Of a DNA stretch of 64,000 nucleotides, positions 6,802-64,000 are shown in pieces (the first letter of the stretch is position 1; each line of letters opens with the position of its first letter). The translations under genes were made by a program, and so were the position numbers. This DNA is from Thermoplasmata archaeon (GTDB lineage Archaea; Thermoplasmatota; E2; JACPAO01; JAHFTW01), in NCBI GenBank assembly GCA_034667725.1, contig JAXDQS010000001.1, positions 109,593-173,592 on the forward strand, written 5' to 3'. The notes below the pieces were generated by a model. It did not search any database, had not been told where the DNA came from, and saw nothing but the letters and a program-made list of their open reading frames with translations.

Positions 6802-7158
6802 TTAGCGCGGCCGGCCCAGCCACAGCAGCGCCAGCGTCCCGGCGCTGCCGCCGACCCCGACCGGTCCTGCGACGTGGACGAGGATGGAGGTCCAGACCAA
6901 CGTGAAGCCCGCCAGCGCCAGGGCGAGCCGGTGGTGCGTGGCGCGCGTGCCGTCCTGCCGGAGGCGCCAGCCGCACCAGGCCAGCGCCGCGCCGACCGTG
7001 AGCATCACCCACCCGAGCGCCAACATGACGGCCCAGCGGTGGTCGAGCCCGCCGCGCTCCCGGAACGCGGTGGCGGTGGCAGCACCCGTGTGCAGCACGG
7101 CCACGACGACGCCGGCCGCGCCCCAGACGAGCGCGGCGTAGGCGGCGGCGCGCCTCAT
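6802..7158 (-). CDS. Small hypothetical membrane protein (118 aa, 3-4 TM)
   Basis: Its start ATG overlaps the upstream gene's stop in ATGA (7155-7158). Hydrophobic helices are present. The rest of ORF 6802..8148 is an artefactual extension. Confidence 0.5.
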   Translation of the reverse strand: MRRAAAYAALVWGAAGVVVAVLHTGAATATAFRERGGLDHRWAVMLALGWVMLTVGAALAWCGWRLRQDGTRATHHRLALALAGFTLVWTSILVHVAGPVGVGGSAGTLALLWLGRPR

Positions 7159-9188
7159 GCGAAGCGGCGGCGGATGGACACGACCGCGACCGTGAGGACC
7201 GCGGCGACCACGACGACGCCGACGCCGCCCAGGATCCAGCCGTAGGTCCAGTCGGTCGCCTTGTGCTCGACCTTGAGGTCGCCGGCGGGCCCGGCCGAAG
7301 GCGCCAGCGCGTAGCTGCTGGTGTGGCTGACCTTGACCCAGGCGATGCCGCGGCCCAGGTCGCGGCCGGCCTCCAGCACGCGCAGCTCGCCCTCGGGCGT
7401 CGTGGCGGGCACGATGCCGTCCTCGTCGGCCGCGAGGTCCACCCAGGCCTCGCCGTCCCAGAAGTGGATGCCCATGGTGGCCGCGGCGTCGGCGGGCAGG
7501 CCCTCCAGGCCCATCTCGATGGTGACGGCCTCCGGCACGGCGCTGGTGGCGTCGGGCTCGACGTGCAGGTACTTGGTGGCGTCCTCGAGCGGCAGGACCG
7601 GCACGGGCAACGCGGACGGGTCGAGGGCGACGGTGGCCTCGGCGACGATGGTGGCCGCGGCCTCGACGTGGTAGCGCAGCACGACCTTCTCGGGCAGGCT
7701 GACCCGGAGCGGCCGCAGCGGGGTGGCGCGGCCGTCGATCGGGGTCGGCAAGGGCAACGCTTCGACCGCGCACGGCAGGTCGAGGGTGACGGGATGGGTG
7801 CGGGCGTGGGTGTGGTTCCAGTCGGCGTCGGCCACGGCCTCCTCCGCCAAGCCGCAGGGGCCGGGAACGGCCGCGACGGGCGCGATGGAGCAGGCGGGCG
7901 GCGTGGAGGCCCCCGTGGTCGTCGTCATGGTCCGGGTCGTCGTCCACCCGCTCGTGGTCGGCGTGGAGGCCATGGTGGGGGACGGCCCCGGCGCGTCGCA
8001 CGTCGTGGGCATGCGCGCGTCCAGGTCCCAGATGTAGATGGGCAGCCGCTCGTCGGAGGTCGCGCCGGCCGCCACCAGCGTGCCGCTGCCGCGCGCGACC
8101 TGGAACGACAGCAAGCCGTTGGCAGGGTCCAGGATCGAGAGGTCCCACTTGCGGAACCCCTCCGGCGGCGACTCCACGTGCAGCCAGCCGGGAGCGACGG
8201 CCACGGCCAAGCTGGACCCGTCGGCGTCGGCGGCGACCGACGTGATGGCGCCGGCCTCGGCGCGCGCCACGGTGCCCTCCAGCGTCCAGGCGCCCTTGCC
8301 GTCCAGGACGTAGTGGTAGGTCATGGGCGACTCGTCCTCGCCGCTGCCGCCCACGACGAGATGGCGGCTGGAGGCGTCCAACGGCCAGGCGAACGACCGG
8401 GCGCCGGGGGGCGGCAGGAAGTGCTGCAGCGGCTCGCCGGCGCGCGGGTCGAAGGCCTGGATGCCGGTCGCCACGCTCACGTGCGCGAACAGCGTGTCCT
8501 CGTTCGCGGCCAGCGCGGTGCCGAAGGCGGGCGCGTCGGCCGGGGCCATGAAGCTGCGGGCCCAGGCCCAGCCGGCCGGGCCCTCCTCGAAGACGTGGAC
8601 GGCGCCTTCCATCGCCTCGGGCTCCGCGACCGCGGCCCAGCCGTCGCCCAGCGCCACGGCCCAGCCGTAGCTGGACGAGTGGCTGGGCACCGCCAGGCTG
8701 GCCACGTGGTCGAGGGTGCCGGCGCGCAGGTCGTAGAGGTCGGCGCGGCCGGGGGTGCCGGGGCCCGAGAACCCCACCAGGAGCCGGCCATCGCGCAGGT
8801 CCACGGCGGCCATGTCGCCCACGTAGGTCGCGTTGTGGGGGATGTCCACGGCGTCCGCCAGCCGCCAGGCGGAGGTGCGGACGTAGAGCTCCACCCGCAG
8901 CGGCGCCGAGCTGTTGGTGGCGTAGGCCACGACGACGATGGCGCCGTCGGCGGCCACTTGGGCCACGCGGCCGCCTGCCTTGGACAGCGCAGGGCTCAGG
9001 AAAGCGGCAGCCGGCTCCGGCGGGGCGTAGGGGTCGGCCGTGAAAGGCGGCGCCCGCGTGGTGGTAGTGGGGGTGGGAGTGGCCGTGGAGGTGTGCGAGG
9101 GCGAGCTGCTGGTGGTCGCCAGCACCGAGCCGGCGAAGGCAAGCAGGAGGGCGGCGGCGAGGACCGCGACCGGGCGGAGGGCAACCAT
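7155..9188 (-). CDS. Cell-surface protein: signal peptide, Thr/Pro-rich linkers, C-terminal TM anchor and RRRFA tail
   Basis: N-terminal signal MVALRPVAVLAAALLLAFAGSVLA. T/P-rich low-complexity stretches. C-terminal GWILGGVGVVVVAAVLTVAVVSIRRRFA. Confidence 0.55.
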   Translation of the reverse strand: MVALRPVAVLAAALLLAFAGSVLATTSSSPSHTSTATPTPTTTTRAPPFTADPYAPPEPAAAFLSPALSKAGGRVAQVAADGAIVVVAYATNSSAPLRVELYVRTSAWRLADAVDIPHNATYVGDMAAVDLRDGRLLVGFSGPGTPGRADLYDLRAGTLDHVASLAVPSHSSSYGWAVALGDGWAAVAEPEAMEGAVHVFEEGPAGWAWARSFMAPADAPAFGTALAANEDTLFAHVSVATGIQAFDPRAGEPLQHFLPPPGARSFAWPLDASSRHLVVGGSGEDESPMTYHYVLDGKGAWTLEGTVARAEAGAITSVAADADGSSLAVAVAPGWLHVESPPEGFRKWDLSILDPANGLLSFQVARGSGTLVAAGATSDERLPIYIWDLDARMPTTCDAPGPSPTMASTPTTSGWTTTRTMTTTTGASTPPACSIAPVAAVPGPCGLAEEAVADADWNHTHARTHPVTLDLPCAVEALPLPTPIDGRATPLRPLRVSLPEKVVLRYHVEAAATIVAEATVALDPSALPVPVLPLEDATKYLHVEPDATSAVPEAVTIEMGLEGLPADAAATMGIHFWDGEAWVDLAADEDGIVPATTPEGELRVLEAGRDLGRGIAWVKVSHTSSYALAPSAGPAGDLKVEHKATDWTYGWILGGVGVVVVAAVLTVAVVSIRRRFA

Positions 9189-17315: not shown

Positions 17316-18785
17316 GTGGACGCCCTCCCCCCCGCCCTCGACCCCCGCCTGCGGGCGCGGGCGCTGGCGGGCGCGGCGTGGGTGCGCGAGCAGCACCAGG
17401 CGGGCCGCCGCATCCTGGTCGTCCACCACTTGGACGCCGACGGCGTGACGGCCGGCGCCATCGCCGCCGAGGCGCTGGCGCGCGCCAACGTCCTGCACGC
17501 CACCCAGGTGGTGCGCTCGCTCGACGACGTCCACGTCCGGCTGGTCCACGACGCGGCGCCGACCGCGCTCTGGTTCTGCGACCTTGGCAGCACGGCGTAC
17601 ATGCACTTCCCGCAGCCGAAGCTGGTGTGCGACCACCACCAACTGGTGCGCGACGGCCACGAGGAGTCGTTCCCGCACGTGAACCCGCTCCTGGACGGCA
17701 TCCCGGGCGAGACCATCTCCGGCGCGGGCTGCGCGTTCCTGGTCGCCGCCGCCATGGACGCGGCCAACGCGGACCTGGTCGTCCCGGCCCTCGTGGGCGC
17801 CGCGGGCGACCGGCAGGACCGGCCGTTCGAGGGCACCAACCAGCTCCTGGTCCGCCTTGCCGTCGGGCGCGGCCTCGCCGACGCCGCCATGGACCTGTCG
17901 TTCTTCGGCCCCGAGACCCGGCCGCTGCGGCAGTTCCTCGCCCGCGGCGACGTCCGCGTGCCCGGCGTCGCCGGCGACCCCCGCGGCGCCGAGGCCCTGC
18001 TCCTGGAGCTGGGCCTGCCGGCCGACACCACCTGGAGCGCGTTGTCGCCCGACGAGCGGCTGCGCGTCCGCTCCGCCCTGGCGACGCGGCTCCTCGACTG
18101 CGGCCTGGCCGCCGAGGTCCCCGGCCTGTGGCGCGAGGTCGTGCGGCTGGCGCGCGAGCCGCCGGGCCCGACGCGCGAGCTGCAGGAGTTCGCCACCCTC
18201 CTCAACAGCACCGCCCGCTACGGCCGCCCCGAGGTCGGCCTGGCCGTGGCCCGCGGCGACCGCGCCGCCGCCTACCAGGAGGCGCTGGCGCTGCTGGTGG
18301 ACCACCGCAAGCACCTCGTCGGCAGCCTCGGCCACCTCGCGGCCGCCGGCGTGCGCGACGGCGTGGCGCTGCAGTGGGTCGACGTCGAGGACCGCGTCCG
18401 CGACACGGTGCTCGGCATCGTGTGCGGCATGGCGCTCGGCGGCGACATGGGCCTGCGGCAGGACCGCCCCATCGTCGGCTTCGCCTGGACGCCCGACGGC
18501 CGCACCAAGGTCTCGACCCGCCTGCCCGCCTTGGCGGAGGCGCGGTTCGACCTGGCGCCCGCCGTGCGGGCGGCCGCGGAGGCGGTGGGCGGCCAAGGCG
18601 GCGGCCACCGCGGGGCCGCCGGGGCGACCATCGGGCGCGGCGACCGCGACCGCTTCCTGGCGGAGCTGGACCGCCTGCTGGCCGCGCAGGTGGGGCTCGC
18701 CCTGCCGGCGCCGGCGCCGACGCCGGCGGCGCCCGCGCAGATGCTGGTGCGCTCAAGCGGCGCGCAGACCCGGTTTGCCCTGTAG
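17316..18785 (+). CDS. DHH-family phosphoesterase, archaeal RecJ-like/GAN-like nuclease (GTG start)
   Basis: DHH motifs ILVVHHLDADGVTAGAI and VCDHHQL. Length ~490 aa. There is no in-frame ATG before the motifs, so GTG at 17316 is the inferred start. Confidence 0.65.
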   Translation: MDALPPALDPRLRARALAGAAWVREQHQAGRRILVVHHLDADGVTAGAIAAEALARANVLHATQVVRSLDDVHVRLVHDAAPTALWFCDLGSTAYMHFPQPKLVCDHHQLVRDGHEESFPHVNPLLDGIPGETISGAGCAFLVAAAMDAANADLVVPALVGAAGDRQDRPFEGTNQLLVRLAVGRGLADAAMDLSFFGPETRPLRQFLARGDVRVPGVAGDPRGAEALLLELGLPADTTWSALSPDERLRVRSALATRLLDCGLAAEVPGLWREVVRLAREPPGPTRELQEFATLLNSTARYGRPEVGLAVARGDRAAAYQEALALLVDHRKHLVGSLGHLAAAGVRDGVALQWVDVEDRVRDTVLGIVCGMALGGDMGLRQDRPIVGFAWTPDGRTKVSTRLPALAEARFDLAPAVRAAAEAVGGQGGGHRGAAGATIGRGDRDRFLAELDRLLAAQVGLALPAPAPTPAAPAQMLVRSSGAQTRFAL

Positions 18786-18840
18786 CGCTGCGAGGCTACC
18801 TCCAATGAATTTGTATAGCCGTCATGCAGCGTCCCCTGTC

Positions 18841-20913
18841 ATGCGCAACCTTGTCCTTGCCCTCCTGACCCTCGCCTTGGTGCTGCCCACCCCGTCGTTC
18901 GCCCAGGAGGCGGGGCAAGGCGTCCGGGTGCTGGAGGACCCCGCCGGCGACGTCGACTTCGCGGACACCGGCCAACCCCTGCCCGCCGGCGGCAACCCCT
19001 ACCTCGACATCCGCACCCTGGACGTCGAGGAGCGCGACGAGGTGTTCGTGTTCCGCTACAAGACCGAGGGCTTCCCCTCTGAGCCCGAGGCCCCCATCGT
19101 CGGCTCGGCGTCGCACCAGATCTCGTTCCGCCACAACGACGCCACCTTCTGGGTCTTCATCTGGCGCCAGGTCCTGGTCCAGACCCCGACCTACTACGCC
19201 AGCTTCGCGGCCAGCTACGGCGGCCAAGCGGGCGGCTCGTTCGCCAACCTCGACATCGTCGTGGGCGACGCCGGCCTCCTGACCTTCGAGATCCCGCGCA
19301 TCCTCCTGGCCGACGCCCAGGGCGCGCCGCCCTTCCCCGGCCGCGTCCTCGAGGACTTCCAGGCCGAGTCCGACAGCGGCGGCAGCTCGATCTGCATCCT
19401 CGAATGCCGCGAGCTGGTCAAGCAGAAGGACGTCGCGTCCTCCACCAGCTCCTTCGAGGTCAAGCTCGGCGTCCAGCAGAGCGGCAACGCCCGCCTCAGC
19501 TCGGCGACGCCCTACCGCGCCACCAACGGCCAGGCCGGCACCACCATCTTCGAGGTCCAGGCCGCCAACATCGGCATCGTCGCCGAGACCTTCGACCTCG
19601 CCGCCGTCAAGGTCCCCGCCAACTGGAAGGTCAGCCTGCCCCAGACCCAGGTCCGCCTGGAGCCCGGCGCCACCGCCACCTTCCCCGTCCTCCTGGAGAT
19701 CCCGTTCCAGCACGTCCACGGCCGCCTCCAGACCTTCGTGGTCGAGATGCGCAGCCCGCTGGACGCCGGCACCGTCGGCCGCGTCGAGCTGGGCCTCCAG
19801 TTCGTGGACCCGCCCCAGCCCGCCGGGCACCACCCCGCCCTGTTCCTGCACAGCCACGCCGCCCGCGACGAGCTCAACACCGCCTTCGGCGCGCTGGTGG
19901 CCGGCAACGGCGCCTGGGCCTCGATGAACACCCTCGACAAGGACGACCTCGACGCCGGCGTCCCGGTGTCCGCCCAGTACAGGGGCGCGGAGGGCGACCT
20001 CGCCGAGCGCAGCAAGTTCCAATGGACCGTCCCGCTGGCCCCCGGCCTCCGCATGGGCATCGACGGCGACATGGCCGGCCTCGGCGCCATCCGCCTCCCG
20101 GTCAGCACCGTCCTGCCCATGGACAACGCCATCGTCGACGGCGCCCTCATCGTCGTCGTCCCCGAGTACTCCTTCGACGGCTACACCTACTGGGAGGAGG
20201 GCACCGAGACCACGATCGCCACCATCCCGCCCACGGCCGCCGTCTCGATCGGCGCCAACGGCCAAGCCATGCTGGAGGGCGAGGTGCGCCCCCACCCGGC
20301 CGGCGACCTGGTGCCGTTCCAGGCCGGCCAGCAGATGCTGCTGGTGCTCAACGTCACCTTCGACCGGCCCGCGACCGTCACGGCCCCGGAGGCGCCCGCG
20401 CTCCTGCCCGGCGGCACCCTCACCGTCCCGCTGCTGGACTACTCCGACCCCGTCGACCAGGTGCTCTCGACCCTGTCGGGCCTGAGCCTCACCGCCAAGG
20501 ACGGCCAGGAGCGCCGCGCCCCGCCCGACTCCACCGCCGTCTACACGATGGAGCTCACCGGCCCCGCCGGCGAGTACCGCCTGGCCGCCTACGGCGCGAA
20601 CCAGGAATGGGTCCGGTTCGCCGAGGGCGAGTCGGCCACCGTCGTCGACGGCGTCGCCACCCTGCACGTCCTCATCGACGTCCCGGCCGACACGCCGAGC
20701 AGCACGGTGACCGACTTCGTCGTCGAGGCCGCCCACCGCGAGATGCTCGACGCCCGCGCCGTGGCCCGCCTGCGCCTGGTCGCCGACCCCACGGCGCCCG
20801 CCGCCGAGAACGTCCCCGACGAGGTCGCGCTCGAGTCGCCGTCGGCGGCCGTCGCCCTCTTGGGCGTGGCCCTGCTGGCGGCCGCCGGCTCGCGGCGCCG
20901 GGTCTATCCGTAG
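18841..20913 (+). CDS. Large secreted protein with a C-terminal TM anchor and basic tail (SPSAAVALLGVALLAAAGSRRRVYP). An alternative start is at 18805.
   Basis: Signal peptide MRNLVLALLTLALVLPTPSFAQEA. TATA-like TTTGTATAG ~25 nt upstream. C-terminal hydrophobic helix plus RRR. No recognisable catalytic motifs. Confidence 0.55.
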   Translation: MRNLVLALLTLALVLPTPSFAQEAGQGVRVLEDPAGDVDFADTGQPLPAGGNPYLDIRTLDVEERDEVFVFRYKTEGFPSEPEAPIVGSASHQISFRHNDATFWVFIWRQVLVQTPTYYASFAASYGGQAGGSFANLDIVVGDAGLLTFEIPRILLADAQGAPPFPGRVLEDFQAESDSGGSSICILECRELVKQKDVASSTSSFEVKLGVQQSGNARLSSATPYRATNGQAGTTIFEVQAANIGIVAETFDLAAVKVPANWKVSLPQTQVRLEPGATATFPVLLEIPFQHVHGRLQTFVVEMRSPLDAGTVGRVELGLQFVDPPQPAGHHPALFLHSHAARDELNTAFGALVAGNGAWASMNTLDKDDLDAGVPVSAQYRGAEGDLAERSKFQWTVPLAPGLRMGIDGDMAGLGAIRLPVSTVLPMDNAIVDGALIVVVPEYSFDGYTYWEEGTETTIATIPPTAAVSIGANGQAMLEGEVRPHPAGDLVPFQAGQQMLLVLNVTFDRPATVTAPEAPALLPGGTLTVPLLDYSDPVDQVLSTLSGLSLTAKDGQERRAPPDSTAVYTMELTGPAGEYRLAAYGANQEWVRFAEGESATVVDGVATLHVLIDVPADTPSSTVTDFVVEAAHREMLDARAVARLRLVADPTAPAAENVPDEVALESPSAAVALLGVALLAAAGSRRRVYP

Positions 20914-27514: not shown

Positions 27515-29602
27515 CTAGCAGGCGATGGTCGCCGCGAACCCGCCGCTTGGCGGGATCCAGCGGTAGCAGCCCGAGACGTCGGCCGCGCCGGCGCCGCTGG
27601 TGGCCCGGAACTGGACCTTGGTGCCCTCCACGATGTGGTAGGACGCCGCGTAGTCCGTCGGGCCCCACGACTGCTTCGCGAGGGGCTGCCAGGCGCCGCC
27701 GTTGAGGCGCACCTCCACCTTGGCGATGGTGTGGCCGCTGTTCGGCGACACCTTGGCCTGCACCCACCACTCGTTGCCCGTCACGAACCCGAAGGTGGCG
27801 TCGAAGCCGGTCGGGGGCGGGGGCGGCGGAGGCGGCGGCGTGCCGCCGGGGCAGGCCACCTTGGTGGCGTCCGCGTTGCTCGGCGGGATCCAGCGGTAGC
27901 AGTCGCTCAGGTCGGTGGCGCCGGTGTTGGCGGTGGCGCGGAACTGCACGATGGTGCCGTCCACGGCGCGCAGGCCGGCGGACCAGCCCCACGACTGCTG
28001 CGTCATCGGCTTCCAGTCGCCGCCGTTGAGGCGAAGCTCCACCTTGGCGAGGATGGAGGTGCCGGTGGCGACGTGCACCTGCTCCCACCACTCGTTGCCG
28101 CGCACCTGCGAGAAGGTCGCGTCGAACGCGGGCGGCGGGGGAGGCGGCGGCGGGGCGCTGCCCGCGTACTCCACGATGTAGGCGTTCACGGGCGGGCAGC
28201 ACGCCCCGGTGCGGCTGGAGCCGGCCACGATGGCGTCGAGGGTGCCGTCGCCGTCGTTGTCGCCGGTGGCGATGGACCGCAGCTCGTCGCCGGAGCCCAC
28301 CTGCGCCACCGTGGTGACGAACCAGGCGGACGGGATCCAGCGGACCTGCAGGACGCGGCCGTCCTCGTCCACGGCGTAGAGCTCGAACTTGTCGTCGCGG
28401 TCCAGGTCGTGCAGCATGAGGTCGTAGGCGGCGCGCGGGCCCAAGGGAATCGAGGTGCCGAACCAGTCGCTGTCATGGAACGAGTAGCGGTCGATGCGCG
28501 TGGAGGCGCTCGCGACGTTGCGCAGCACGTAGAGCTCCTGCTGGCCGTCGTTGTCGCCGTCGGTGGCCAGGATGTCCACGACCTCCTGGTCGGTCGAGGA
28601 GACGAACTGGAGCTGGGTGTTGTAGCCGCCCGTCGCGTCCCGCTCGATGCGGTAGACGGCCTGCCGGTCGCCGTTGTAGCCGGCGGCCCACAGCTCGGGG
28701 ATGCCGTCGCGGGTGGCGTCGCCGAAGGCCAGGTAGGGCGCGGCGTCGGCCGACACGAGCTGCACGCCGTCGGGCAGCTGCCAGTCGAAGTCCACGCGGT
28801 ACAGGGGCTGCTCGCCGAAGCCGTTGGAGGTGCCGACGTAGAGCGAGACGTCGCCGTCGCCCCAGTTGCCGACCGTCATGCTGCGCACCGGGTAGGGCAG
28901 GTCGGCGGCGACGGTGGTCTGCCAGCCGGGGAAGACCCATTCGTGGCGCAGCACGAGGTCATGGGTGCCGACGCCGCTGCGGCCCGAGGAATACACCTCG
29001 GGGCGGCGGTCGCCGTCGAGGTCGGCGACGAGGACGCGGGTGCGCTCGCGGTCGGTGACCAGGGTGCTGGTCCAAGCGCCGGCGTCGTTGCGCTCCATCG
29101 CGACCAGGCCCTCGCGGGTCGGGACGTAGACCTCGGTGTGAGTGTCCCGGTCGAGGTCGCCGGTGGCGATGCCCAGGTCGTCCGGCATCGAGCCGGTCGT
29201 GAACGCCTTGGCCGTCGCCCAGCCGGCGGGCGGCGGCGGGTTGTCGCACATCTCGGTGCCCGCGGGGTGCGTGAACCAGCAGGACACGGCCTGCACGCCG
29301 TCGCCGAAGGTCGCGCGGAACCGGACCTCCTCGCCCGGCGGGAAGGCGTAGCTGCCGGCCCAGGAGCCCCAGGACTTCTTCTCCAAGGGATGCCAGACGC
29401 GGTTCGTCTCGTCCTGCACGTCCACGCGCACGACCGAGGAGGCCGCGGCGCCGCCCAGCACGACCTCGACCCAGTAGTCGTTGCCCGTCTTGTGGTCGAA
29501 CACGATGGACTTGCCCGAGTCGTTCTGGGTGTGGTTGGCCTGGACGGGGACGAGCCCGCCAAGCAGCAGGGCGACCCCGAAGGCCGCCAGCACCCGCCTC
29601 AT
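27515..29602 (-). CDS. Secreted protein B: N-terminal expansin-C-like module, FG-GAP/VCBS beta-propeller, two C-terminal expansin-C/CBM63-like modules separated by Pro9-11 linkers
   Basis: Signal peptide MRRVLAAFGVALLLGGLVPVQA. Seven DxDxDG-type FG-GAP repeats (e.g. GDLDRDTHTEVYV, TDGDNDGQQELYV, GDNDGDGTLDAIVAG). Modules FSQVRGNEWWEQVHV...VELRLNGGDWKPMTQQSWG...VQFRAT align with Phl p 2 / expansin domain 2. The start overlaps gene C's stop (ATGA). Confidence 0.7.
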   Translation of the reverse strand: MRRVLAAFGVALLLGGLVPVQANHTQNDSGKSIVFDHKTGNDYWVEVVLGGAAASSVVRVDVQDETNRVWHPLEKKSWGSWAGSYAFPPGEEVRFRATFGDGVQAVSCWFTHPAGTEMCDNPPPPAGWATAKAFTTGSMPDDLGIATGDLDRDTHTEVYVPTREGLVAMERNDAGAWTSTLVTDRERTRVLVADLDGDRRPEVYSSGRSGVGTHDLVLRHEWVFPGWQTTVAADLPYPVRSMTVGNWGDGDVSLYVGTSNGFGEQPLYRVDFDWQLPDGVQLVSADAAPYLAFGDATRDGIPELWAAGYNGDRQAVYRIERDATGGYNTQLQFVSSTDQEVVDILATDGDNDGQQELYVLRNVASASTRIDRYSFHDSDWFGTSIPLGPRAAYDLMLHDLDRDDKFELYAVDEDGRVLQVRWIPSAWFVTTVAQVGSGDELRSIATGDNDGDGTLDAIVAGSSRTGACCPPVNAYIVEYAGSAPPPPPPPPAFDATFSQVRGNEWWEQVHVATGTSILAKVELRLNGGDWKPMTQQSWGWSAGLRAVDGTIVQFRATANTGATDLSDCYRWIPPSNADATKVACPGGTPPPPPPPPPTGFDATFGFVTGNEWWVQAKVSPNSGHTIAKVEVRLNGGAWQPLAKQSWGPTDYAASYHIVEGTKVQFRATSGAGAADVSGCYRWIPPSGGFAATIAC

Positions 29603-31755
29603 GGGCACCCCGCCGTCGGGGTGGCTTGGGGCCAGATGTATCCGGCGGAGTAGTCGACGGCGCCGGTGGTGCTGGTGGCGCGGAAGTCCACCTTGGAGCC
29701 GCTGGGGACGTTGAAGCTCTTGGCGTAGGAGCCCCAGCTTTGCAGCGTCAAGGTTTGCCAAGCGGTGCCGCAGTTGACGCGGGCCTCGACCTTGGCGATG
29801 GCCTGGTTGGCCGTCACCTTGGCCTCGACCCACCAGTCGTTGCCCTTGACGCTCGAGAACGTCGCATCAAAGCCCGGAGGCGGCGGGGGCGGCGGGGGCG
29901 GGGGCGGCGTGCTGCCGCACGCGACCTTGGTTGCGTCGGTGTTGCTGGGAGGAATCCACTGGTAGCAGTCGCTCAGGTCGGTGGCGCCCGTGGTGCTGGT
30001 GGCCCGGAACTGCACGACGGTGCCCTGCACCGCATGGTACGAGGCCGCCCAGCCGCCCCATGACTGCTTTGTGAGGGGTTGCCAGGCGCCGCCGTTGAGG
30101 CGCACATCCACCTTGGAGAGCGTGCCGCCAGCGGCCGCAACATTCGCCTGGATCCACCACTCGTTGCCACGCACACCCGTGAACGTGGCGTCGAAGCTGG
30201 TGCTGGCGCGCGGCACCCCGACCTGGTACACCTCGGTGTGCCCCTCGTCGTACGGGATGCCCGTGCTGTAGCTGATGCTCAGGTAAGCCTCGCGCCGGCC
30301 GTCGCCATCGCCGTCGCCGACCACGGTCAAGGCCGCGTTGCCGTTCTCGCCGCTGCCATCGGTGGGCCGGGCGACCTCGGTGACCTGCCAGAACGCGCCG
30401 TCCCAGCGGACCTGGATCAGTTGGCCATACCACGTGGTCACGTAGAGCTCGTCGCTGCCGTCGCCGTCGCCGTCCCCGAGGAACAGGCCCGAGGGCGCGA
30501 TGGCGGGGGCGGAGCCCGAGGGAAGCGAGGAGTAAGGCGTCTGGATGTTCCAGCCGGTGGCCGGGCTGAACGAGGCGCGCCGGAACTCGCCTTGGTCGGT
30601 GATGCTGTAGATCTCGGGCTTGCCGTCGCGGTCGCCGTCGCCCGCCACCACGTGCTTCTCGCCGTAGTTGGAGCCGCCCTGGTCGATGGTGGTGAACTCC
30701 CAGCCGCTGCTGGTGTGGCGCAGCCGGCTTGCCTTGGCGGCGTGGGCCGTGCCGTGCCCGATGTAGAGCTCGAAGCTGCCGTCGCGGTCGCCGTCGCCGA
30801 TCCACAGCGACTCCAGGTGGCCCTGCTGCAGCAGGATGAGCTGCGACTCCACGAGCCCGCCGGCGGCGTCGAGCCGGACCTTGTGCACGGCCGAGGAGGT
30901 GCCGTCGGCCATGCCGACGTAGAGCTCGGGGCCGGGGATGCCGTCGATGTCGCCGATCGTCATGTCGTCCGGGAACGGCTCGGCGAAGCTCGTGACCAGC
31001 GTCTCCACCCAGGCGCCACCGACGAAGTCGTAGCGCACCAGGTCGGAGTTGCTCATGGCGTAGATCTCGGAGCGGCCGTCGCCGTTGCCGTCGCCCACCG
31101 CCACCGCGTAGGTGGCCGAGCGGGAGCCAATCTGCTGGCGAACCCAGGCGGTGCCGGTCCACTCGAAGTTGAAGATGCCGTTGCGGGTGGCCTGCGTCAC
31201 GTCGCGCCGGCCGTCGTTGTCGGCGTCGCCCACCGCCATGTCGCCGCTGCCGGACGAGACGCCGGCGTTGCCCATCAGGCGGACCTGCCAATCCTGGGGC
31301 GGCAACGGGCTGCCGCACTCCTCGACGCCGACGGGGTGCGTGAACGGGCACGACTCGACGAAGCCCACTTGGCCCGTCGCGCCGTCGGTCATGTAGGCGC
31401 GGAAGATGACGCGGTCGCCGGGCGGGATGCGGAACGCCTGGTTCGGCGCCCACTTCGTCCAGCCGTTGCTGGTGCCGACCGCGTGCATGGTGTTGGTGGT
31501 CGTGCCGTGCTCGGCCCGCGCCTCCACGACGTTGACGGAGTCGCCTGCGGCGGGCTTGGTCAGGACCTCGACCCACCATTCGTTGTCGCCGTCGTGGTCG
31601 AACTGCACCCCGATGGAGCCGCTGCCGGCGGAGCCGGTCTGGACGTGGTTGGAAAGGACAGGGGACGGAACGAGAAGGAGCGCTGCGAACGCGACGGCGG
31701 CGAGCCACCAACGTTTCGGTCGGGGAGGGTCGGAGGGAACCTGCGGGCCAATCAT
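29599..31755 (-). CDS. Secreted protein C, a paralog of B with the same architecture (expansin-C-like module, FG-GAP propeller, two expansin-C/CBM63-like modules)
   Basis: Signal-like N-terminus WWLAAVAFAALLLVPSPVLS. FG-GAP repeats (GDADNDGRRDV, GDGNGDGRSEIY, GDGDRDGKPEIYS, GDGDGDGSDELYV). C-terminal modules TGVRGNEWWIQANV...VDVRLNGGAWQPLTKQSWG...VQFRATS. P13 linker. Confidence 0.7.
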   Translation of the reverse strand: MIGPQVPSDPPRPKRWWLAAVAFAALLLVPSPVLSNHVQTGSAGSGSIGVQFDHDGDNEWWVEVLTKPAAGDSVNVVEARAEHGTTTNTMHAVGTSNGWTKWAPNQAFRIPPGDRVIFRAYMTDGATGQVGFVESCPFTHPVGVEECGSPLPPQDWQVRLMGNAGVSSGSGDMAVGDADNDGRRDVTQATRNGIFNFEWTGTAWVRQQIGSRSATYAVAVGDGNGDGRSEIYAMSNSDLVRYDFVGGAWVETLVTSFAEPFPDDMTIGDIDGIPGPELYVGMADGTSSAVHKVRLDAAGGLVESQLILLQQGHLESLWIGDGDRDGSFELYIGHGTAHAAKASRLRHTSSGWEFTTIDQGGSNYGEKHVVAGDGDRDGKPEIYSITDQGEFRRASFSPATGWNIQTPYSSLPSGSAPAIAPSGLFLGDGDGDGSDELYVTTWYGQLIQVRWDGAFWQVTEVARPTDGSGENGNAALTVVGDGDGDGRREAYLSISYSTGIPYDEGHTEVYQVGVPRASTSFDATFTGVRGNEWWIQANVAAAGGTLSKVDVRLNGGAWQPLTKQSWGGWAASYHAVQGTVVQFRATSTTGATDLSDCYQWIPPSNTDATKVACGSTPPPPPPPPPPPGFDATFSSVKGNDWWVEAKVTANQAIAKVEARVNCGTAWQTLTLQSWGSYAKSFNVPSGSKVDFRATSTTGAVDYSAGYIWPQATPTAGCP

Positions 31756-33024: not shown

Positions 33025-33237
33025 GGCAGTGTTGGGCTCGACGTACTCGACCTCCCACACCCTCAAATACCACCCCCGTGTCGCGGAACCGTCCAAAGCC
33101 GTCTTCCGCCTAGATGCGGAGGTCGGTCCCGGCGGAGTCGATCAGGCTTCCGCAGGGTACTCGCAGGCCCCCTGGCCCACGCGGTACGCTGCCGGTCGCA
33201 GGGTCGGCCTCACTGGGGAGACATAGGGTGATTCCCC

Positions 33238-34497
33238 ATGGCATCCAACAAGCCCCACATGAACCTCGTCGTGATCGGCCACGTCGACCACGGCAAGTCG
33301 ACCCTCGTCGGTCGCCTGATGCTCGACACGGGCCAGTTCCCGGCCCATGAGATTGAACGCTTCAAGAAGGAGTCCGCCGAGAAGGGCAAGGGCTCGTTCT
33401 TCCTCGCCTGGGTCATGGACAACCTGAAGGAGGAGCGCGAACGCGGCGTCACCATCGACGTCTCGCACAAGAAGTTCGACACCCCGAAGTATTACTTCAC
33501 GATCATCGACGCCCCGGGCCACCGCGACTTCGTCAAGAACATGATCACGGGCGCCTCCCAGGCCGACGCGGCCATCCTGACCTGCTCGGCCATCGAGGGC
33601 CCCCAGGCGCAGACCAAGGAGCACATCTTCCTCGCGAAGACCCTCGGCATCGACCAGCTCGTGGTCGCCGTCAACAAGATGGACGCCGTCAGCTTCTCCG
33701 AGGACAAGTTCAAGGAGACCGTCGAGGCCGTCAAGAAGCTCACCAAGCTCATCGGCTTCAAGGAGGAGAAGGTCCAGTTCGTCCCCGTCGCCGCCTTCTC
33801 GGGCGTCAACACCATCAACCCGTCCCCCGAGATGCCCTGGTACAAGGGCCCGACGCTGGTCGCGGCGCTCGACAACTTCGTCATGCCCAACAAGCCGACG
33901 GACAAGCCCCTGCGCATCCCTATCCAGGACGTCTACACCATCACCGGCATCGGCACCGTCCCGGTCGGCAAGGTCGAGACGGGCATCCTGAAGCCCGGCA
34001 TGTCGATCCACTTCAACCCCAGCAACAAGACCGCTGAGGTCAAGTCGGTCGAGATGCACCACGAGCAGCTCCCCCAGGCCATCCCTGGCGACAACGTGGG
34101 CTTCAACTGCCGTGGCCTCGCCAAGAACGACATCCGCCGCGGCGACGTCGGCGCTCCCGTCGACAAGCCCGCCACCGTGGCCAAGACGTTCACCGCGCAG
34201 GTCATCGTCCTGAACCACCCGTCGGTCATCACCGCCGGCTACACCCCCGTCTTCCACGCCTACACCGCGCAGAACGCGTGCACCTTCGTCGAGATCAAGA
34301 AGGTCGTCCGCGGCGGCAAGGAGCAGGAGGACAAGTCGTTCATGAAGACCGGCGACTCTGGCATCGTCAAGATCCAGCCGACCCGCCCCATGGTCGTCGA
34401 GAAGGCCACCGAGTTCCCCCCGCTCGGCCGCTTCGCCATCCGCGACATGGGCCAGACCGTGGCCGTCGGCGTCGCCATCGACGTGGAGCCCCGCTAG
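33238..34497 (+). CDS. tuf: Translation elongation factor EF-1 alpha
   Basis: G1 [10 protein letters not shown]3 [12 protein letters not shown]. Full-length match. The conserved archaeal tuf-rps10 arrangement. Confidence 0.97.
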
Positions 34498-36753: not shown

Positions 36754-36770
36754 CGCCTTGACCAACCACG

Positions 36771-36823
36771 GATGCCACGGATTGCACGGACCATGGGTTC
36801 CGTGGCATCCGTGCAATCCGTGG
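36771..36823. terminator. Repeat-rich hairpin element with two mutually exclusive stems between the convergent rtcB and archaeosortase genes
   Basis: Stem A: 36771-36781 pairs with 36799-36809 (11 bp). Stem B: 36775-36788 pairs with 36810-36823 (14 bp). Built from the CCACGGAT and ATCCGTG repeat units. Confidence 0.5.
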
Positions 36824-36827
36824 TCCG

Positions 36828-37733
36828 TCAAGCGGAGGCCGGCGCAGCCGCCTTCTGCTTGCGGTTGACGATCCAGGCGAACAGGAACGCCCACGCCACG
36901 AAGAACACCCAGCCCGCCTGGGCGTGGGCCTCCATCAAGGCGTCGACGCCCCAGTGGTAGCCCACCACCATCAGCATCACCAGCCGCAGCAGGTTCGCGA
37001 CGTACACGCCGCCGAGGCCGATCAGCGTGAGGAGCGCCGCGCGAGGGCCGGACGGGCGCTCGACCAGAAGATAGAGGGCCAGCAGGACCGCGAACAGCGC
37101 CATCGCCTGGATGCCGGAGCACGCCGCCCCGACCTCGACCGTGATCGGGCCGGCCGCCGTGGTGTAGCCCAGGATCTGGCCGTCCAGGTGCGGCTGCCAG
37201 CCCAGCACCGTGAGGATGCCCGTCAAGGGCCAGAGCAGGCCGACCTGGAGGAACGCTTCGACCGGGGTGCTGCCGACCGCCGCCTCGAAGCCCGCCTGCA
37301 CCGCGTGGACCGCGAGCGGCGCGCCGAGGACGGCGGCGAGGCTCACGGCCAGCGTGGACACCGTTGCTTCGGGCCGCCCGCGCAACGGCAGGCGGACGCG
37401 CTCTTGGAGGTGCTGCGCGCACGCGGCGAGCACGAGGCCGGTGCCGACCATGGCGGCCTTGGGCAGGTCGAACGCGGTGCGGGCGAGCGCGACGTAGGCG
37501 ATGGGGCCGAGGGCGAGGAGGGCGGCCAGCACCCAGGCGAGCCAGGCCGGCATCGTAGGCAGCCGGGGGACTTGGCGGACGGAGGCGACCAAGGCGGCGC
37601 CGAAGGCGGCCAGGCCGAGGCCGACCAGGAGGTCCTCATGCGGCACGACGCCGAGCAGGATGGCGAGACCCCAGCCCAGCAGGGCGAGGCCGAGGAACCA
37701 GGGGCCGGTGCCGTGGGCGGGAGCGGGGGACAT
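36828..37733 (-). CDS. Archaeosortase / exosortase-family transpeptidase (polytopic membrane protein)
   Basis: About 8 TM helices. Active-site Cys in GAACSGIQAMALF. Conserved Arg in VANLLRLVMLMV (N..R motif). ~300 aa, typical of EpsH/ArtA-family enzymes. Confidence 0.7.
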   Translation of the reverse strand: MSPAPAHGTGPWFLGLALLGWGLAILLGVVPHEDLLVGLGLAAFGAALVASVRQVPRLPTMPAWLAWVLAALLALGPIAYVALARTAFDLPKAAMVGTGLVLAACAQHLQERVRLPLRGRPEATVSTLAVSLAAVLGAPLAVHAVQAGFEAAVGSTPVEAFLQVGLLWPLTGILTVLGWQPHLDGQILGYTTAAGPITVEVGAACSGIQAMALFAVLLALYLLVERPSGPRAALLTLIGLGGVYVANLLRLVMLMVVGYHWGVDALMEAHAQAGWVFFVAWAFLFAWIVNRKQKAAAPASA

Positions 37734-37751
37734 GGGGGGACCTCAGGGGAC

Positions 37752-37782
37752 GGAAGGAAGGGAAGGAAGGAGGGGAAGAGGA
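37752..37782 (-). promoter_or_regulatory. 31-nt polypyrimidine tract (minus strand) between the sorting-signal protein gene and the archaeosortase gene
   Basis: Plus strand is pure purine, GGAAGGAAGGGAAGGAAGGAGGGGAAGAGGA. Lies 19-49 nt upstream of the archaeosortase ATG. Confidence 0.35.
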
Positions 37783-37794
37783 TCGAGGGCGGGC

Positions 37795-38547
37795 CTACTT
37801 GCGCAGGCGGCCGCGGACCATCACGCCCGCGGCACCCAAGGCACCGAGGGCGCCGAGGGCCAGGGCGGGCGCGGACGGGAAGAACGGCACCTGGCCGTCC
37901 GGCGGGGAGCTGTCGTCGCTCCCGCCAGTGGTCGTGCCGGTCGTCGTGCCGGTGTCCGTGTCGGTGTCGTCGTCCTCCTCGCCCTCGTCGCCTGGCGGGG
38001 TGTCGTCGCCACCGTCGTCGACCGGGGGCGTGTCGTCGCCCGTGCACTCGGCGAGCGCGTCGAGGTCGATGCCGATGCCCTCCTCGACCAGCATGGTGAG
38101 GCCGGCGGCGGCCTCGAACTCGCCCATCGCCTCGAGCTGGGCCGCGAGGTCCAGGACGATGGCGGCGGCCAAGGCGGCGGCGACCTCGTCCTGCAGGCTG
38201 GCGGGGATGTTGCCGGCCGCGTCCATGCGGGCCTCGATCTCGGCGTCGACCTCCTCGAAGAAGTCGGCCTCGCCGGCCATGACGGCCTCGAGGTCCACCG
38301 TGTCGACGTCGGCGGCCAAGCCCGCGGTGACGGCGGCGGCGACCTTGGCCTGGAGGTTGGCGTTCAGGTCGGCGCCGACCTGGGCCGCGACGCAGCCGCC
38401 AAGCGAGGCGTCCACCTCGACGTCGGCGGCCGTGTTGGCGGAGGCCGTGAGGCTAGGAAGGGCGGCGGCCGTCCCCGCCAGCACGAGGAGGCTGGCGAGG
38501 GCGGCTAGGCCGAGCAGGCGTTTGCGTCGGGGTCGGGTCGGGAGCAT
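37795..38547 (-). CDS. Secreted acidic protein with a C-terminal sorting signal VPFFPSAP-TM-RGRLRK (putative archaeosortase substrate)
   Basis: Signal peptide MLPTRPRRKRLLGLAALASLLVLAGTAAA. Asp/Glu/Thr-rich linker (DDTPPGDEGEEDDDTDTDTGTTTGTTTGGSDDSSPPDG). Then VPFFPSAPALALGALGALGAAGVMV plus RGRLRK. The upstream part of ORF 37795..40011 is antisense to 38680..39990. Confidence 0.6.
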   Translation of the reverse strand: MLPTRPRRKRLLGLAALASLLVLAGTAAALPSLTASANTAADVEVDASLGGCVAAQVGADLNANLQAKVAAAVTAGLAADVDTVDLEAVMAGEADFFEEVDAEIEARMDAAGNIPASLQDEVAAALAAAIVLDLAAQLEAMGEFEAAAGLTMLVEEGIGIDLDALAECTGDDTPPVDDGGDDTPPGDEGEEDDDTDTDTGTTTGTTTGGSDDSSPPDGQVPFFPSAPALALGALGALGAAGVMVRGRLRK

Positions 38548-38679: not shown

Positions 38680-39990
38680 GTGAAGCTGCTGGCGCTCGTG
38701 GCCCTTGCCCTGCTGCCGGCCGTCGCGGCCCAGGCGCCCGGCATTTACAACCCGACCGAGGCGGCGCCCGTCGAGCTCTACTTCCATCTCGACGGCTTCC
38801 AGGAGTTCCCCATCAACACCCAGGCGCCCCCGGACAGCGCCTCCGGCGACATCGGCCCCGGCATCCTGGGCACCAGCTCCTCCTGCCTTCCCGGCACCGG
38901 CGCCACCGGCCAGTCGCTGCACACCATGCGCGGCTTCTCCAGCCCCTCCTACGTCGAGTACGGCTTCATCGAGCAGGGCATGGTCCGCCTGCACCCCGAG
39001 CGCGGCCTGAGCTACGACGTGGACATCGAGGGCTCCCCCGTGCTGCACTGGTTCCTCTCCACCGACCCCGGCCTGGCCCCCGAAGGCGGCGTGGACCCCG
39101 CCACCCTGCCGCTCCTGGTGCCCCAGGCCATCGTCGAGGCGACGTTGCGCACCGGCGGCGGCGCCGGCCCCGAGGACCTCCGCAACGACACCGGCACGCT
39201 GCTGGGGTCGGGCCGCAGCGCGCCCGCCTTCCTTGCCGGCCCCTTGACGCCCCAGGCGAGCCCCGAGGTCGAGTACGCCACCGTCGACGGCCGGCCCGTG
39301 TACCACTTCCAGGTCCCGCTCACCCTGGCGGCCCCCGTCATCCCGGCGGCGGGCGGCTTCACCCTGCGCGTCGACACCCGCATCGACCTGCCCGCGTGCA
39401 GCGACGGCGCCGCCTACCTCGCGCCCTCGTCCATCAAGGCGCACACGAGCCCCGCCCACCGCCCCCGCCTGTCGATGCAGGTCCACGAGGCCGTGCGCAT
39501 CGAGTACCTGCACCCGCAGCGCGTCGGCGACCAGGTGTTCATCCACACCGCCCTCAACTCGCCGTTCGGCAACTACGACGTCAACGAGACCGCCCTCCGC
39601 CTCCGCCTCGACGGCCCCACGCCGGCAACAAGCCTGCGCCCCGGCGACCTGGTGCAGCGCACCCACGAGCACGGCCACCACACCGAGGCCGTCGACCAGC
39701 CCTGGATCTGGGACTACCGCGCCGACCACGCCGAGGGCGCCTACACCATCGTGCTGGAGGCCGCCAACGACCAAGGCAGCGCCACGGCGCGGGCCGTCGG
39801 CCGCATCGAGGTCGGCGACGAGGTCAAGGTCACGGGCTGCGGCTCGCTGGCAGGCCCCGGCGGCTGCGCCGAGGAGACCCAGGACATCTCCGGCAACCCC
39901 GTGGCCGGCGAGGCCGCGTCCGCCTGGCCTGCCGCCGGCCTCGCGCTGGCCATGCTCGGGGCCGCCTCCTGGCGGCGCCGGCGCCGCTGA
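38680..39990 (+). CDS. Secreted protein with a C-terminal TM plus poly-Arg tail (SAWPAAGLALAMLGAASWRRRRR), GTG start
   Basis: Signal peptide (M)KLLALVALALLPAVAAQA. 436 aa. C-terminal hydrophobic helix followed by R5. Confidence 0.55.
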   Translation: MKLLALVALALLPAVAAQAPGIYNPTEAAPVELYFHLDGFQEFPINTQAPPDSASGDIGPGILGTSSSCLPGTGATGQSLHTMRGFSSPSYVEYGFIEQGMVRLHPERGLSYDVDIEGSPVLHWFLSTDPGLAPEGGVDPATLPLLVPQAIVEATLRTGGGAGPEDLRNDTGTLLGSGRSAPAFLAGPLTPQASPEVEYATVDGRPVYHFQVPLTLAAPVIPAAGGFTLRVDTRIDLPACSDGAAYLAPSSIKAHTSPAHRPRLSMQVHEAVRIEYLHPQRVGDQVFIHTALNSPFGNYDVNETALRLRLDGPTPATSLRPGDLVQRTHEHGHHTEAVDQPWIWDYRADHAEGAYTIVLEAANDQGSATARAVGRIEVGDEVKVTGCGSLAGPGGCAEETQDISGNPVAGEAASAWPAAGLALAMLGAASWRRRRR

Positions 39991-62617: not shown

Positions 62618-63586
62618 TCAGGTGCCGGGGTCGGCCCAGCGGCGGCGCAGCACGGTCGCGAGCGCCAGGACGGCGGCGGCCACGGCGAGGATCACCAGGA
62701 TGCCGAAGACCAGCCCGCCCACGTCGAAGGCGAACACGATGGCGTCGATGGCGAGCACGGTGGCGGCGCCGACCAGGAGGTTCGGGTCGCGGATGCGCAG
62801 GGCGAGCGCCAGGAGGGCGGCGGCGGGGAGGGCCACCGCCAGCTCCGGGGCGCCGTGGTCGTCCAGGTCCAGCACCTCGGCCGTGAAGACCGCGACGGGG
62901 GCGGCCACCAGCACCGCGGCCAGGCCAAGCGCCGGCGAGACCCATTCCTGCTTGAAGCCGACCCGAAGGAACGCCAAGGCGGCGAGGTGGACGGCGGCGA
63001 TGGCCAGCCAGGCCATGATGCCCGCGTCGCCGGGGCCAAAGAACTGGTCCTGGCCGAACAGGCGCAGGCTGACCACGAACGCGGCGGCTTGGAGCGCCAG
63101 CGTGGCGAAGAACGCGGCCATGGTCGTGCGGCGCGTGAACGAGACCGCGGCGGCCACGGCGACCGACACGACCGAGAACCATTGGCCGAGCGCCTCGTCC
63201 GGCAACGGCGCGAACGTCAGGCAGACGAGGGCCGCGACCAGCAAGGCGTCGGCGAGGTCCTGGTTGCGCGACAGGAACCAGAGCGCGACGCCGCCGGCCA
63301 GCAGGCCCAGCCCAAGCGCGAACAAGATGGACCCCTGCTCCGCGCGGTGGTCCCCGGCCACCTGGTCGAACAGCAGCACCACGAGGGCGATGGCCGCGGC
63401 GCCCAGCAGCACGCCGCCCAGCCCATGCAGGATGGTGGGCAGCGCCGCCCGCCGCCCCGACGGCTCTTGGGCAAGTGCTGGGGCCAGCTCCGCCTCGATG
63501 CGCGCGACGGAAGGTCCTGGAATCCAGCCTTTGGCGGCCCAACGGCGGACATGCGCCAGGAGCTTGCGGGCCTCGTCGCCGTCCAT
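62618..63586 (-). CDS. Polytopic membrane protein, DUF2157-like (paralog of 60074..60967). Start taken at the internal Met.
   Basis: N-terminal helix ARKLLAHVRRWAAKGWIPGPSVARIEAELA, then about 8 TM helices. The ORF extends to 63718 but the paralog alignment supports 63586. Confidence 0.5.
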   Translation of the reverse strand: MDGDEARKLLAHVRRWAAKGWIPGPSVARIEAELAPALAQEPSGRRAALPTILHGLGGVLLGAAAIALVVLLFDQVAGDHRAEQGSILFALGLGLLAGGVALWFLSRNQDLADALLVAALVCLTFAPLPDEALGQWFSVVSVAVAAAVSFTRRTTMAAFFATLALQAAAFVVSLRLFGQDQFFGPGDAGIMAWLAIAAVHLAALAFLRVGFKQEWVSPALGLAAVLVAAPVAVFTAEVLDLDDHGAPELAVALPAAALLALALRIRDPNLLVGAATVLAIDAIVFAFDVGGLVFGILVILAVAAAVLALATVLRRRWADPGT

Positions 63587-63677
63587 GCCGGACCAGCCGT
63601 TCGCCGGCCGATAACCATGCCGGAATCCCTTCCAAGGGGGAGCGGCATGGACGGGCGTGGCCGTCACCGTGGCGCCC

Positions 63678-64000
63678 ATGGCGGGCGAGGACGTCGAGTC
63701 CATCCGCTTCCTGCTCACCGGCTACGTCAAGGAGTTCGCCGCCGCCCTCGGCGCCCAGGACTTCGCCGCCGAGATGCTGGAGCTGCCCGAGCGCTACGCC
63801 CCGCCCGAGGGCCGGATGTTCGTCGTCCGCTGGGAAGGCATCGTCGTCGGCTGCGCGGCCTGGAAGCGGTTCGACGGGACCCGCTGCGAACTGAAGCGCA
63901 TGGTGGTCGCCCCGGAGGCGCGCGGCGTCGGCGCCGGCCGGGCGCTCGCGGTCGCCGCGATGCAGGACGCCGCCAGCCACGGCATGACCGAGATGCTGCT
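63678..64000 (+). CDS. GNAT-family N-acetyltransferase (partial, runs off the window end)
   Basis: ...RCELKRMVVAPEARGVGAGRALAVAAMQDA matches the acetyl-CoA-binding motif A (R/Q-x-x-G-x-G/A) of GNAT. Confidence 0.6.
   Translation, partial: MAGEDVESIRFLLTGYVKEFAAALGAQDFAAEMLELPERYAPPEGRMFVVRWEGIVVGCAAWKRFDGTRCELKRMVVAPEARGVGAGRALAVAAMQDAASHGMTEML

Follow-up and report, generated by a model that had tools for sequence, protein, structure and literature searches.

Does the pair of minus-strand genes that fills positions 36828 to 38547 of a 64,000-nucleotide stretch from a Thermoplasmata archaeon (contig JAXDQS010000001.1; the whole stretch is hereafter called the window) form an archaeosortase system, and if so, one of a described class? 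Such systems determine which proteins cover an archaeal cell. The two consecutive genes encode a 250-residue acidic protein and a membrane enzyme, where the original prediction, made from the letters of the window, had placed them, and both genes were confirmed. We propose that they are, very probably, a sorting enzyme and its cis-encoded target, from an uncurated archaeosortase subfamily so far found only in high-GC metagenome-assembled genomes (MAGs) of Thermoplasmatota. The enzyme is a member of the exosortase/archaeosortase family, the target ends in a conserved tripartite tail, the same tail is carried by unrelated secreted proteins, and its linkage to the enzyme is conserved.

The enzyme and its family

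The enzyme (positions 36828 to 37733, minus strand) has 301 residues and is identical to the NCBI "hypothetical protein" QOD77_130 of Thermoplasmata archaeon. It scores 66.8 bits against the exosortase/archaeosortase signature model TIGR04178 (cut-off, 23), over residues 199 to 291, and 43.3 bits against Pfam PF09721 (cut-off, 25.7), and TIGR04178 is matched by all 22 aligned homologs. By these hidden Markov model (HMM) matches, the enzyme belongs to the exosortase/archaeosortase superfamily, as had been predicted, and identification as a CAAX protease or a rhomboid was ruled out. We collected 80 homologs at 42 to 80% identity; all those with a taxonomic name are from Thermoplasmata/Thermoplasmatota, and their product names, where given, are limited to the generic family name.

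The residues singled out in the original prediction, the cysteine of GAACSGI and the arginine of NLLRLV, correspond to Cys205 (GAACSG; codon at 37119 to 37121), the presumed catalytic nucleophile, located within the TIGR04178 signature region, and Arg250 (NLLRL; codon at 36984 to 36986), a presumed active-site residue. Both are invariant in the 22 homologs, as are the presumed active-site His270 (AHAQAGW; codon at 36924 to 36926) and Asn247 of the NLLRL motif. Cys, Arg, and His form the set regarded as catalytic for the family (bioRxiv 10.1101/2023.06.07.544157). Hydropathy analysis of the enzyme gives about eight to nine hydrophobic segments, and AlphaFold2, given the alignment of 22 sequences, models the protein with confidence as a bundle of membrane helices (predicted local distance difference test score [pLDDT], 91; predicted template modeling score, 0.84), pointing to about eight transmembrane helices. 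Searches of the PDB with the enzyme, by sequence and by fold, returned nothing significant; a solved structure is lacking for every member of the fold.

To which archaeosortase subfamily does the enzyme belong? The classification against subfamily HMMs that had been suggested gave a clear match to the signature model, while every curated NCBIfam subfamily model stayed below its cut-off: 56.7 bits for ArtC (TIGR03762; cut-off, 100), 49.2 for EpsH (105), 19.2 for the thaumarchaeosortase model (250), 17.8 for ArtE (95), 16.5 for ArtF (150), and 16.4 for ArtA (TIGR04125; 75), with the ArtB, XrtA-Y, and cyanoexosortase models also far under their cut-offs. The 22 aligned homologs gave the same picture. 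The best of these deserves attention, since ArtC is the top subfamily model for all 22 homologs (best E value, 5.2e-18), as would be expected if the pair were a divergent member of the described ArtC/PEF-CTERM system in which the Glu of the motif has been replaced by Phe or Val. We consider this improbable: the ArtC score is far under the 100-bit cut-off, and the match is confined to the catalytic core that these enzymes share (residues 174 to 289). The tail, discussed below, bears on the same alternative. We read the enzyme instead as representing an archaeosortase subfamily that had not been curated before and that has a cognate signal of its own.

Two further observations concern the enzyme family. 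Pro31 and His32, in the VPHED segment of the first extramembrane loop (residues 31 to 34, window positions 37632 to 37643), are invariant and family specific, and the Glu-Asp that follows is near-invariant; this loop lies outside the match to the general signature model. Two bacterial loci from Terricaulis (L013 and L014) encode ordinary exosortases that have only the catalytic core in common with the enzyme (38% identity over about 90 residues), and they are outside this sortase-tail system.

The target and its C-terminal tail

The target gene (37795 to 38547, minus strand) encodes a protein in which no Pfam or NCBIfam domain was matched. The layout that had been predicted for it holds in most parts. 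A signal-peptide-like segment, MLPTRPRRKRLLGLAALASLLVLAGTAAALPSLTASA, covers residues 1 to 37 (38437 to 38547), with a basic n-region followed by an h-region at residues 11 to 29; the cleavage site was placed by eye. The mature protein has an isoelectric point of about 4, 44 Asp/Glu against 2 Lys/Arg residues, and two Cys residues. The helical region is the less certain part, as residues of about 47 to 169 are predicted to be helical with low confidence (single-sequence AlphaFold2; pLDDT, 54). It is followed by a low-complexity linker rich in Asp, Glu, Thr, and Pro (residues of about 170 to 216; 37900 to 38040) and by the C-terminal ending VPFFPS-APALALGALGALGAAGVMV-RGRLRK. This ending comprises the signature motif V-P-F-F-P-S (residues 220 to 225; 37873 to 37890), a Gly/Ala/Leu-rich transmembrane segment of 19 residues placed at a hydropathy peak (residues 226 to 244; 37816 to 37872), and the basic cluster RGRLRK (residues 245 to 250; 37798 to 37815). 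An orthologue of the target at the related locus L015 has the same tail and adjoins a sortase gene whose product is 80% identical to the enzyme.

How widespread is this ending? A profile built from three tails (those of the target and of proteins P0081 and P0082) and searched against 1.84 billion representative proteins retrieved 48 proteins at E values of 1e-3 or below, of which 47 carry the tail at their extreme C terminus, the exception being a WD40 protein. A separate profile search with the tail alignment over a collection of 5.8 billion proteins was unsuccessful, with 2 of 5,777 scored candidates at E values of 10 or below. Fifty-five tails align without internal gaps except in one column and give the consensus T-[EQ]-[IV]-P-[FV]-F-P-[ST]-x-x-A-L-x-L-G-x-x-G-A-L-G-G-x-[LF]-L-[MV]-L-R-R-R-[L]. 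The first motif residue is Ile in 34 tails and Val in 20, the first Pro and the second Phe are present in 55/55, and the second Pro is present in 46/55; the middle residue is Phe in 42, Val in 13, and Glu in none. About 20 hydrophobic residues follow the motif, among which two Gly positions are conserved in 48/55 and 54/55, and Arg occupies the three C-terminal basic positions in 53, 51, and 47 of the 55 tails.

The proteins that carry this P-F-F tail are often unrelated in their mature parts. A simple hydropathy test finds an N-terminal hydrophobic, signal-like segment in 44 of the 47 full-length carriers, and Ser, Thr, and Pro make up at least 50% of the 30 residues ahead of the motif in 23/56. 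When the tails are removed, BLASTP finds no similarity between many pairs of carriers: the target and its L015 orthologue match no other carrier, and those of L005 and L008 match only one another. Among the other carriers, at least four modules recur in varied combinations (ICHATGS, GT[IV]KVH, DDMGF, and SFVSYNTT), the second of which runs GT[IV]KVH...NDPHVGC. Other carrier domains are Ice_binding (P0087), Big_3_5 (P0112), and, in some proteins, a weak PKD match. In all, the tail is present on at least six unrelated mature domains or target families. Two of the carriers are annotated at NCBI as "hypothetical protein."

Haft's attributes of tripartite sorting signals include a C-terminal location, a motif, a helix, a basic cluster, an N-terminal signal peptide, and occurrence on unrelated carriers. 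In these respects, the P-F-F tail lies at the very C terminus in 47/47 true matches, combines a helix and a basic cluster with at least three near-invariant motif residues ([IV] in 54/55 tails, beside the fully invariant Pro and Phe), accompanies a signal-like N terminus in most carriers, and is the sole shared feature of many pairs of them.

The ICHATGS module, of about 65 residues (ICHATGS..NPY...GH..H...DIIPPF.Y....SQNWD..G), is repeated across many carriers, in some of them as two copies, and is not matched by Pfam; we found it at L001, L007, L010, L011, and L016 and in P0090, P0091, P0104, P0107, and P0121.

Comparison with described sorting signals

Does the tail belong to a class already described? 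The described classes are ArtA/PGF-CTERM, ArtB/VPXXXP-CTERM, and ArtC/PEF-CTERM (PMC5244752, PMC9723798, PMC6098224); the motifs of ArtD and ArtE are not named in these three papers. With 12 natural tails as queries, none of the sorting-domain models of NCBIfam release 20 (June 2026) reached its cut-off; such NCBIfam matches as there were are weak and generic, over the helix and Arg region. A synthetic PEF-like tail (IPEFP...) and a synthetic PGF-like tail served solely as positive controls. The former matched the PEF-CTERM model TIGR03024 along its whole length at 48.4 bits (cut-off, 23 bits), and the latter scored 48.2 bits on the PGF-CTERM model TIGR04126 (cut-off, 24.5 bits); the NCBIfam library can therefore detect such short domains. 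The original prediction that the tail is not PGF-CTERM thus stands; the tail is not PEF-CTERM either, and by these model searches the tail matches no described sorting-signal class. PVF-, PFF-, and PxF-CTERM were not found in use as terms in the literature searched.

The closest comparison is with ArtC/PEF-CTERM of methanogens and anaerobic methanotrophic archaea, which has an enzyme of the same superfamily and a tripartite signal whose motif abuts the helix. The local motif is also alike (I-P-x-F-P, where the PEF sequence is that of the synthetic control, for which the 48-bit model score is the sole validation), so that I-P-E-F-P and the I-P-F-F-P found here are one residue apart, a further point in favor of derivation from ArtC/PEF-CTERM. 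Against it, the PEF-CTERM model gave no match at an E value of 10 or below with the 12 natural tails, and it remained unmatched by the consensus and by variants of the consensus and of the window tail in which the middle Phe had been changed to Glu. Likewise, the PGF-CTERM model matched neither any tail nor the Phe-to-Gly variants. What sets the class apart from PEF and PGF is thus more than a single residue, and in the case of PEF the difference extends through the Gly-rich helix (ALxLGxxGALGG). Unlike PEF-CTERM, moreover, the P-F-F motif never has Glu at its middle position, its lineage is Thermoplasmatota, and its targets are mostly encoded beside the enzyme.

With ArtA/PGF-CTERM of Haloferax volcanii, the system shares a polytopic enzyme with conserved Cys and Arg, a P-x-F motif followed by a helix and a basic cluster, and a Thr/Ser-rich stalk before the motif. 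Cys173, Arg214, and Arg253 of ArtA are required for its activity (PMC9263693). The distribution of targets differs: ArtA has 1 to 52 dispersed targets per genome (PMC6098224), whereas here they are clustered with the enzyme.

The pair adds an enzyme subfamily and a recognition motif, in an uncultivated Thermoplasmatota lineage of soil and groundwater. The linkage of enzyme and target is unusually clear because their genes are consecutive, and because a single position of the motif distinguishes P-G-F, P-E-F, and P-[FV]-F, the pair is a convenient minimal system for archaeosortase specificity. With two new HMMs, one for the enzyme clade and one for the tail, dozens of "hypothetical proteins" could be annotated as surface proteins. 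The finding is incremental, in that the concept of how archaeosortase systems work is unchanged.

Linkage of tail and sortase genes

Is the pairing of enzyme and target peculiar to the window? Related loci were gathered through the sortase, and reverse look-ups were begun from tail proteins. Of these related loci, 20 are independent, and in 17 of the 20 the sortase gene has a tail gene as its neighbor. The tail gene lies directly upstream and on the same strand in the window and at L001, L003, L004, L005, L007, L008, L010, L011, L015, L016, L017, L020, and L021; spacing in the gene calls ranges from a 4-nucleotide overlap to about 200 nucleotides. The contigs of six tail proteins were inspected, and all three proteins with enough flanking sequence adjoin a sortase gene: the N terminus of a divergently transcribed sortase lies about 157 nucleotides from P0112, and genes matching PF09721 lie 10 and 45 nucleotides downstream of P0102 and P0125, respectively. 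The contigs of P0096, P0087, and P0128 are too short to judge linkage; two of the three have tandem target genes. Scanning metagenomes with the sortase alignment returned only six loci, of which two are long.

An HMM of the 55 tails, run over all six-frame open reading frames (ORFs) of the window together with 27 loci (291 kb), picked out 21 ORFs at 35.7 bits or more, with the next at 11.3 bits; scanning about 40 kb of further flanks yielded no new tail ORF. Exactly one of the 21 ORFs is in the window, and it is the target, so that, of the two possibilities left by the original prediction, that of a single true substrate is right for the window. The subtypes of the tail follow the sortase tree, as for RGRLRK in the window and L015, PFFTSGT in L001 and L016, RRRN in L004 and L021, and PIPxFP in L005, L008, and L020.

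The description of the system as dedicated holds for adjacency; it fails for one-to-one correspondence, as the signal is found on the at least six unrelated target families noted above. Tandem tail genes, two each, are present at L004, L010, and L025, and in one MAG, which contains L004 and L005, three tail genes accompany two paralogous sortases. Together with the clade discussed below that has no adjacent target, tandem targets and paralogues indicate that the system is mostly cis-encoded and not strictly one-to-one. Dedicated systems as defined by Haft likewise have consecutive enzyme and target genes, as seen in the window with its one enzyme and one target, but the P-F-F signal is on many unrelated proteins, sometimes in tandem, and the varied occupants of the target slot (see below) also depart from a pattern of one enzyme with one target family. 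As an aside, the MAGs with L003, L004, L005, and L010 are titled "uncultured Halobacteriales archaeon" yet share both the sortase clade and the tails with the Thermoplasmatota MAGs; the "Halobacteriales" label looks doubtful.

Could the tail be nothing other than an ordinary, permanent membrane anchor, adjacent to a sortase gene without functional meaning? C-terminal anchors of this kind, with a transmembrane helix and Arg residues and without the motif, are common in these genomes; besides the target, the window has four, at 7155 to 9188, 17857 to 20913 (given as 18841 to 20913 in the original prediction), 38680 to 39990, and 62618 to 63718. The tail HMM gave no score on any of these four, and no curated signal model exceeded its cut-off on the full-length proteins. 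The first three had been set apart from the target by the original prediction as lacking the motif, and the HMM result agrees. Given in addition the invariance of Pro and Phe in all 55 tails, the conserved spacing of Gly, the presence of the tail on unrelated proteins, and sortase linkage at 17/20 loci, including the three informative look-ups from the tail side, a permanent anchor with fortuitous adjacency appears extremely improbable.

The plain C termini of the window were accordingly rejected as members of the same class on the tail-HMM result, and the L015 orthologue of 38680 to 39990 moreover runs on for 25 residues past the helix, which fits a plain membrane anchor. The isolated tail of 38680 to 39990 reaches 17.0 bits against the LPXTG anchor model (cut-off, 15.9); we regard this match as generic, since the score falls to 10.9 bits with the full-length protein. 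The gene at 38680 to 39990 (plus strand) is the divergent neighbor of the target, and synteny is kept in the closest relative (L015, 1111 to 2511, minus strand). Its product is secreted, with an HEHGHH motif, a C-terminal helix, and no family match, and it may be functionally linked to the sortase-target pair.

Proposed mechanism

How would such a pair work? Of the archaeosortases, only ArtA has been studied by experiment, and for it alone are cleavage, at PGF-CTERM, and lipid anchoring of the substrates both proven (PMC9263693, PMC6098224); we take it as the mechanistic model for that reason. The target would be exported via its N-terminal signal peptide, and its C-terminal helix would hold it transiently in the membrane, the Arg cluster facing the cytoplasm. 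The polytopic enzyme would recognize [IV]-P-[FV]-F-P-[ST], abutting the helix, and Cys205, with Arg250 and His270, would cut the helix off at or beside P-F-F. By analogy with Haloferax ArtA, the new C terminus would probably be joined to a membrane lipid, and the acidic, probably glycosylated target would stay bound to the surface by this anchor.

Alternatively, the enzyme may only cleave, with the target released to the medium, or the helix removed for turnover, and no new anchor formed. The small, very acidic, and soluble-looking character of the window target would suit release, and one-step transfer of the new C terminus is unresolved even for ArtA (bioRxiv 10.1101/2023.06.07.544157). We nevertheless find cleavage alone unlikely, since ArtA, the one characterized archaeosortase, yields lipid-anchored products (PMC6098224) and the Ser/Thr/Pro-rich stalk of many carriers is typical of surface proteins held off the membrane.

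Several points count against the interpretation of the pair as a sorting enzyme with its cis-encoded target. What is proposed for cleavage, for the site of the cut, and for the kind of new anchor is carried over by analogy from ArtA. Around the sortases of one clade, formed by L002, L009, and L012, no tail gene was seen within 6 kb, and adjacency is for that reason not universal. The covariation of tail subtypes with sortase clades could be mere vertical inheritance of the locus. The tail HMM in part scores its own training tails, and the count of tail proteins in the source genome covers the 64-kb window only.

A variable target slot in syntenic clusters

In one sortase subclade, the target and sortase genes are part of a conserved cluster for surface biogenesis (L016, 1 to 6936; L028, 4437 to 10846; L032, 827 to 9800), composed of genes for FG-GAP proteins, a GT2 glycosyltransferase, a DUF6541-like protein (a membrane protein of about 570 residues with a weak DUF6541 match), a DUF1616 protein, the target, and the sortase. 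The target slot upstream of the sortase is occupied by a different family in each of these three genomes, which suggests cassette-like exchange of the displayed proteins. A DUF1616-like C terminus is also found ahead of the targets at L001, L003, L007, and L026.

We put forward, as a speculation that we hold to be doubtful, that the slot between the DUF1616-like gene and the sortase gene is an exchangeable cassette site, and that tail and sortase make up a portable "display module." The P-F-F tail would then be the sole constant of the occupants at L016, L028, and L032, and also at L001 and L003, a corollary that is tentative in the same degree; the acceptor might in that case differ from the lipid used by ArtA. 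If true, the cassette site would let these archaea swap their surface-anchored protein.

Genomic setting and additional observations

The window has a G+C content of 71%. The genes flanking the pair are archaeal housekeeping genes (RtcB, NucS, and AlaRS), with EF-1alpha, assigned by sequence, at 33232 to 34497; this setting is unlike the conserved surface cluster of the subclade described above. A spacer of 61 nucleotides (37734 to 37794, minus strand) separates the stop codon of the target from the ATG of the sortase. It contains a Shine-Dalgarno-like GAGGT about 8 nucleotides ahead of this ATG, and no terminator-like site was seen when it was searched for one; the two genes are probably cotranscribed.

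An imperfect palindrome of 34 nucleotides (82% complementary, with perfect subarms of 15 and 16 nucleotides) is present at 36757 to 36832, between the convergent RtcB (stop at 36753) and sortase (stop at 36828) genes, and overlaps the stop codon of the sortase. A bidirectional terminator hairpin is one possible identity for it, and a repeat element is another.

Looser C termini, with a helix and Arg residues after a Val/Pro-rich start (PVPAPP..., GVPTVGP..., SVPSLP..., and ESPSAA...), were noted at L030 (8471 to 9517), L005 (8524 to 9771), L009 (12091 to 12840, minus strand), and in the window (17857 to 20913). Where tested, they had no NCBIfam match, and they could be another sorting class or plain anchors. 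Two proteins, at L009 (262 to 1095, minus strand; ending in ...AVPGFVAALSIALAVTLAVRRREA) and L020 (847 to 2313, minus strand; ending in ...LLPGFGLLGAWVALGYGALRRRL), have endings that look like PGF-CTERM; they were rejected as such when the PGF-CTERM model gave no match.

Finally, two adjacent genes on the minus strand of the window, at 27515 to 29833 and 29599 to 31755, encode paralogues with FG-GAP repeats, one of which also has an Expansin_C domain. Their Cys-containing C termini are alike and are without a membrane tail.

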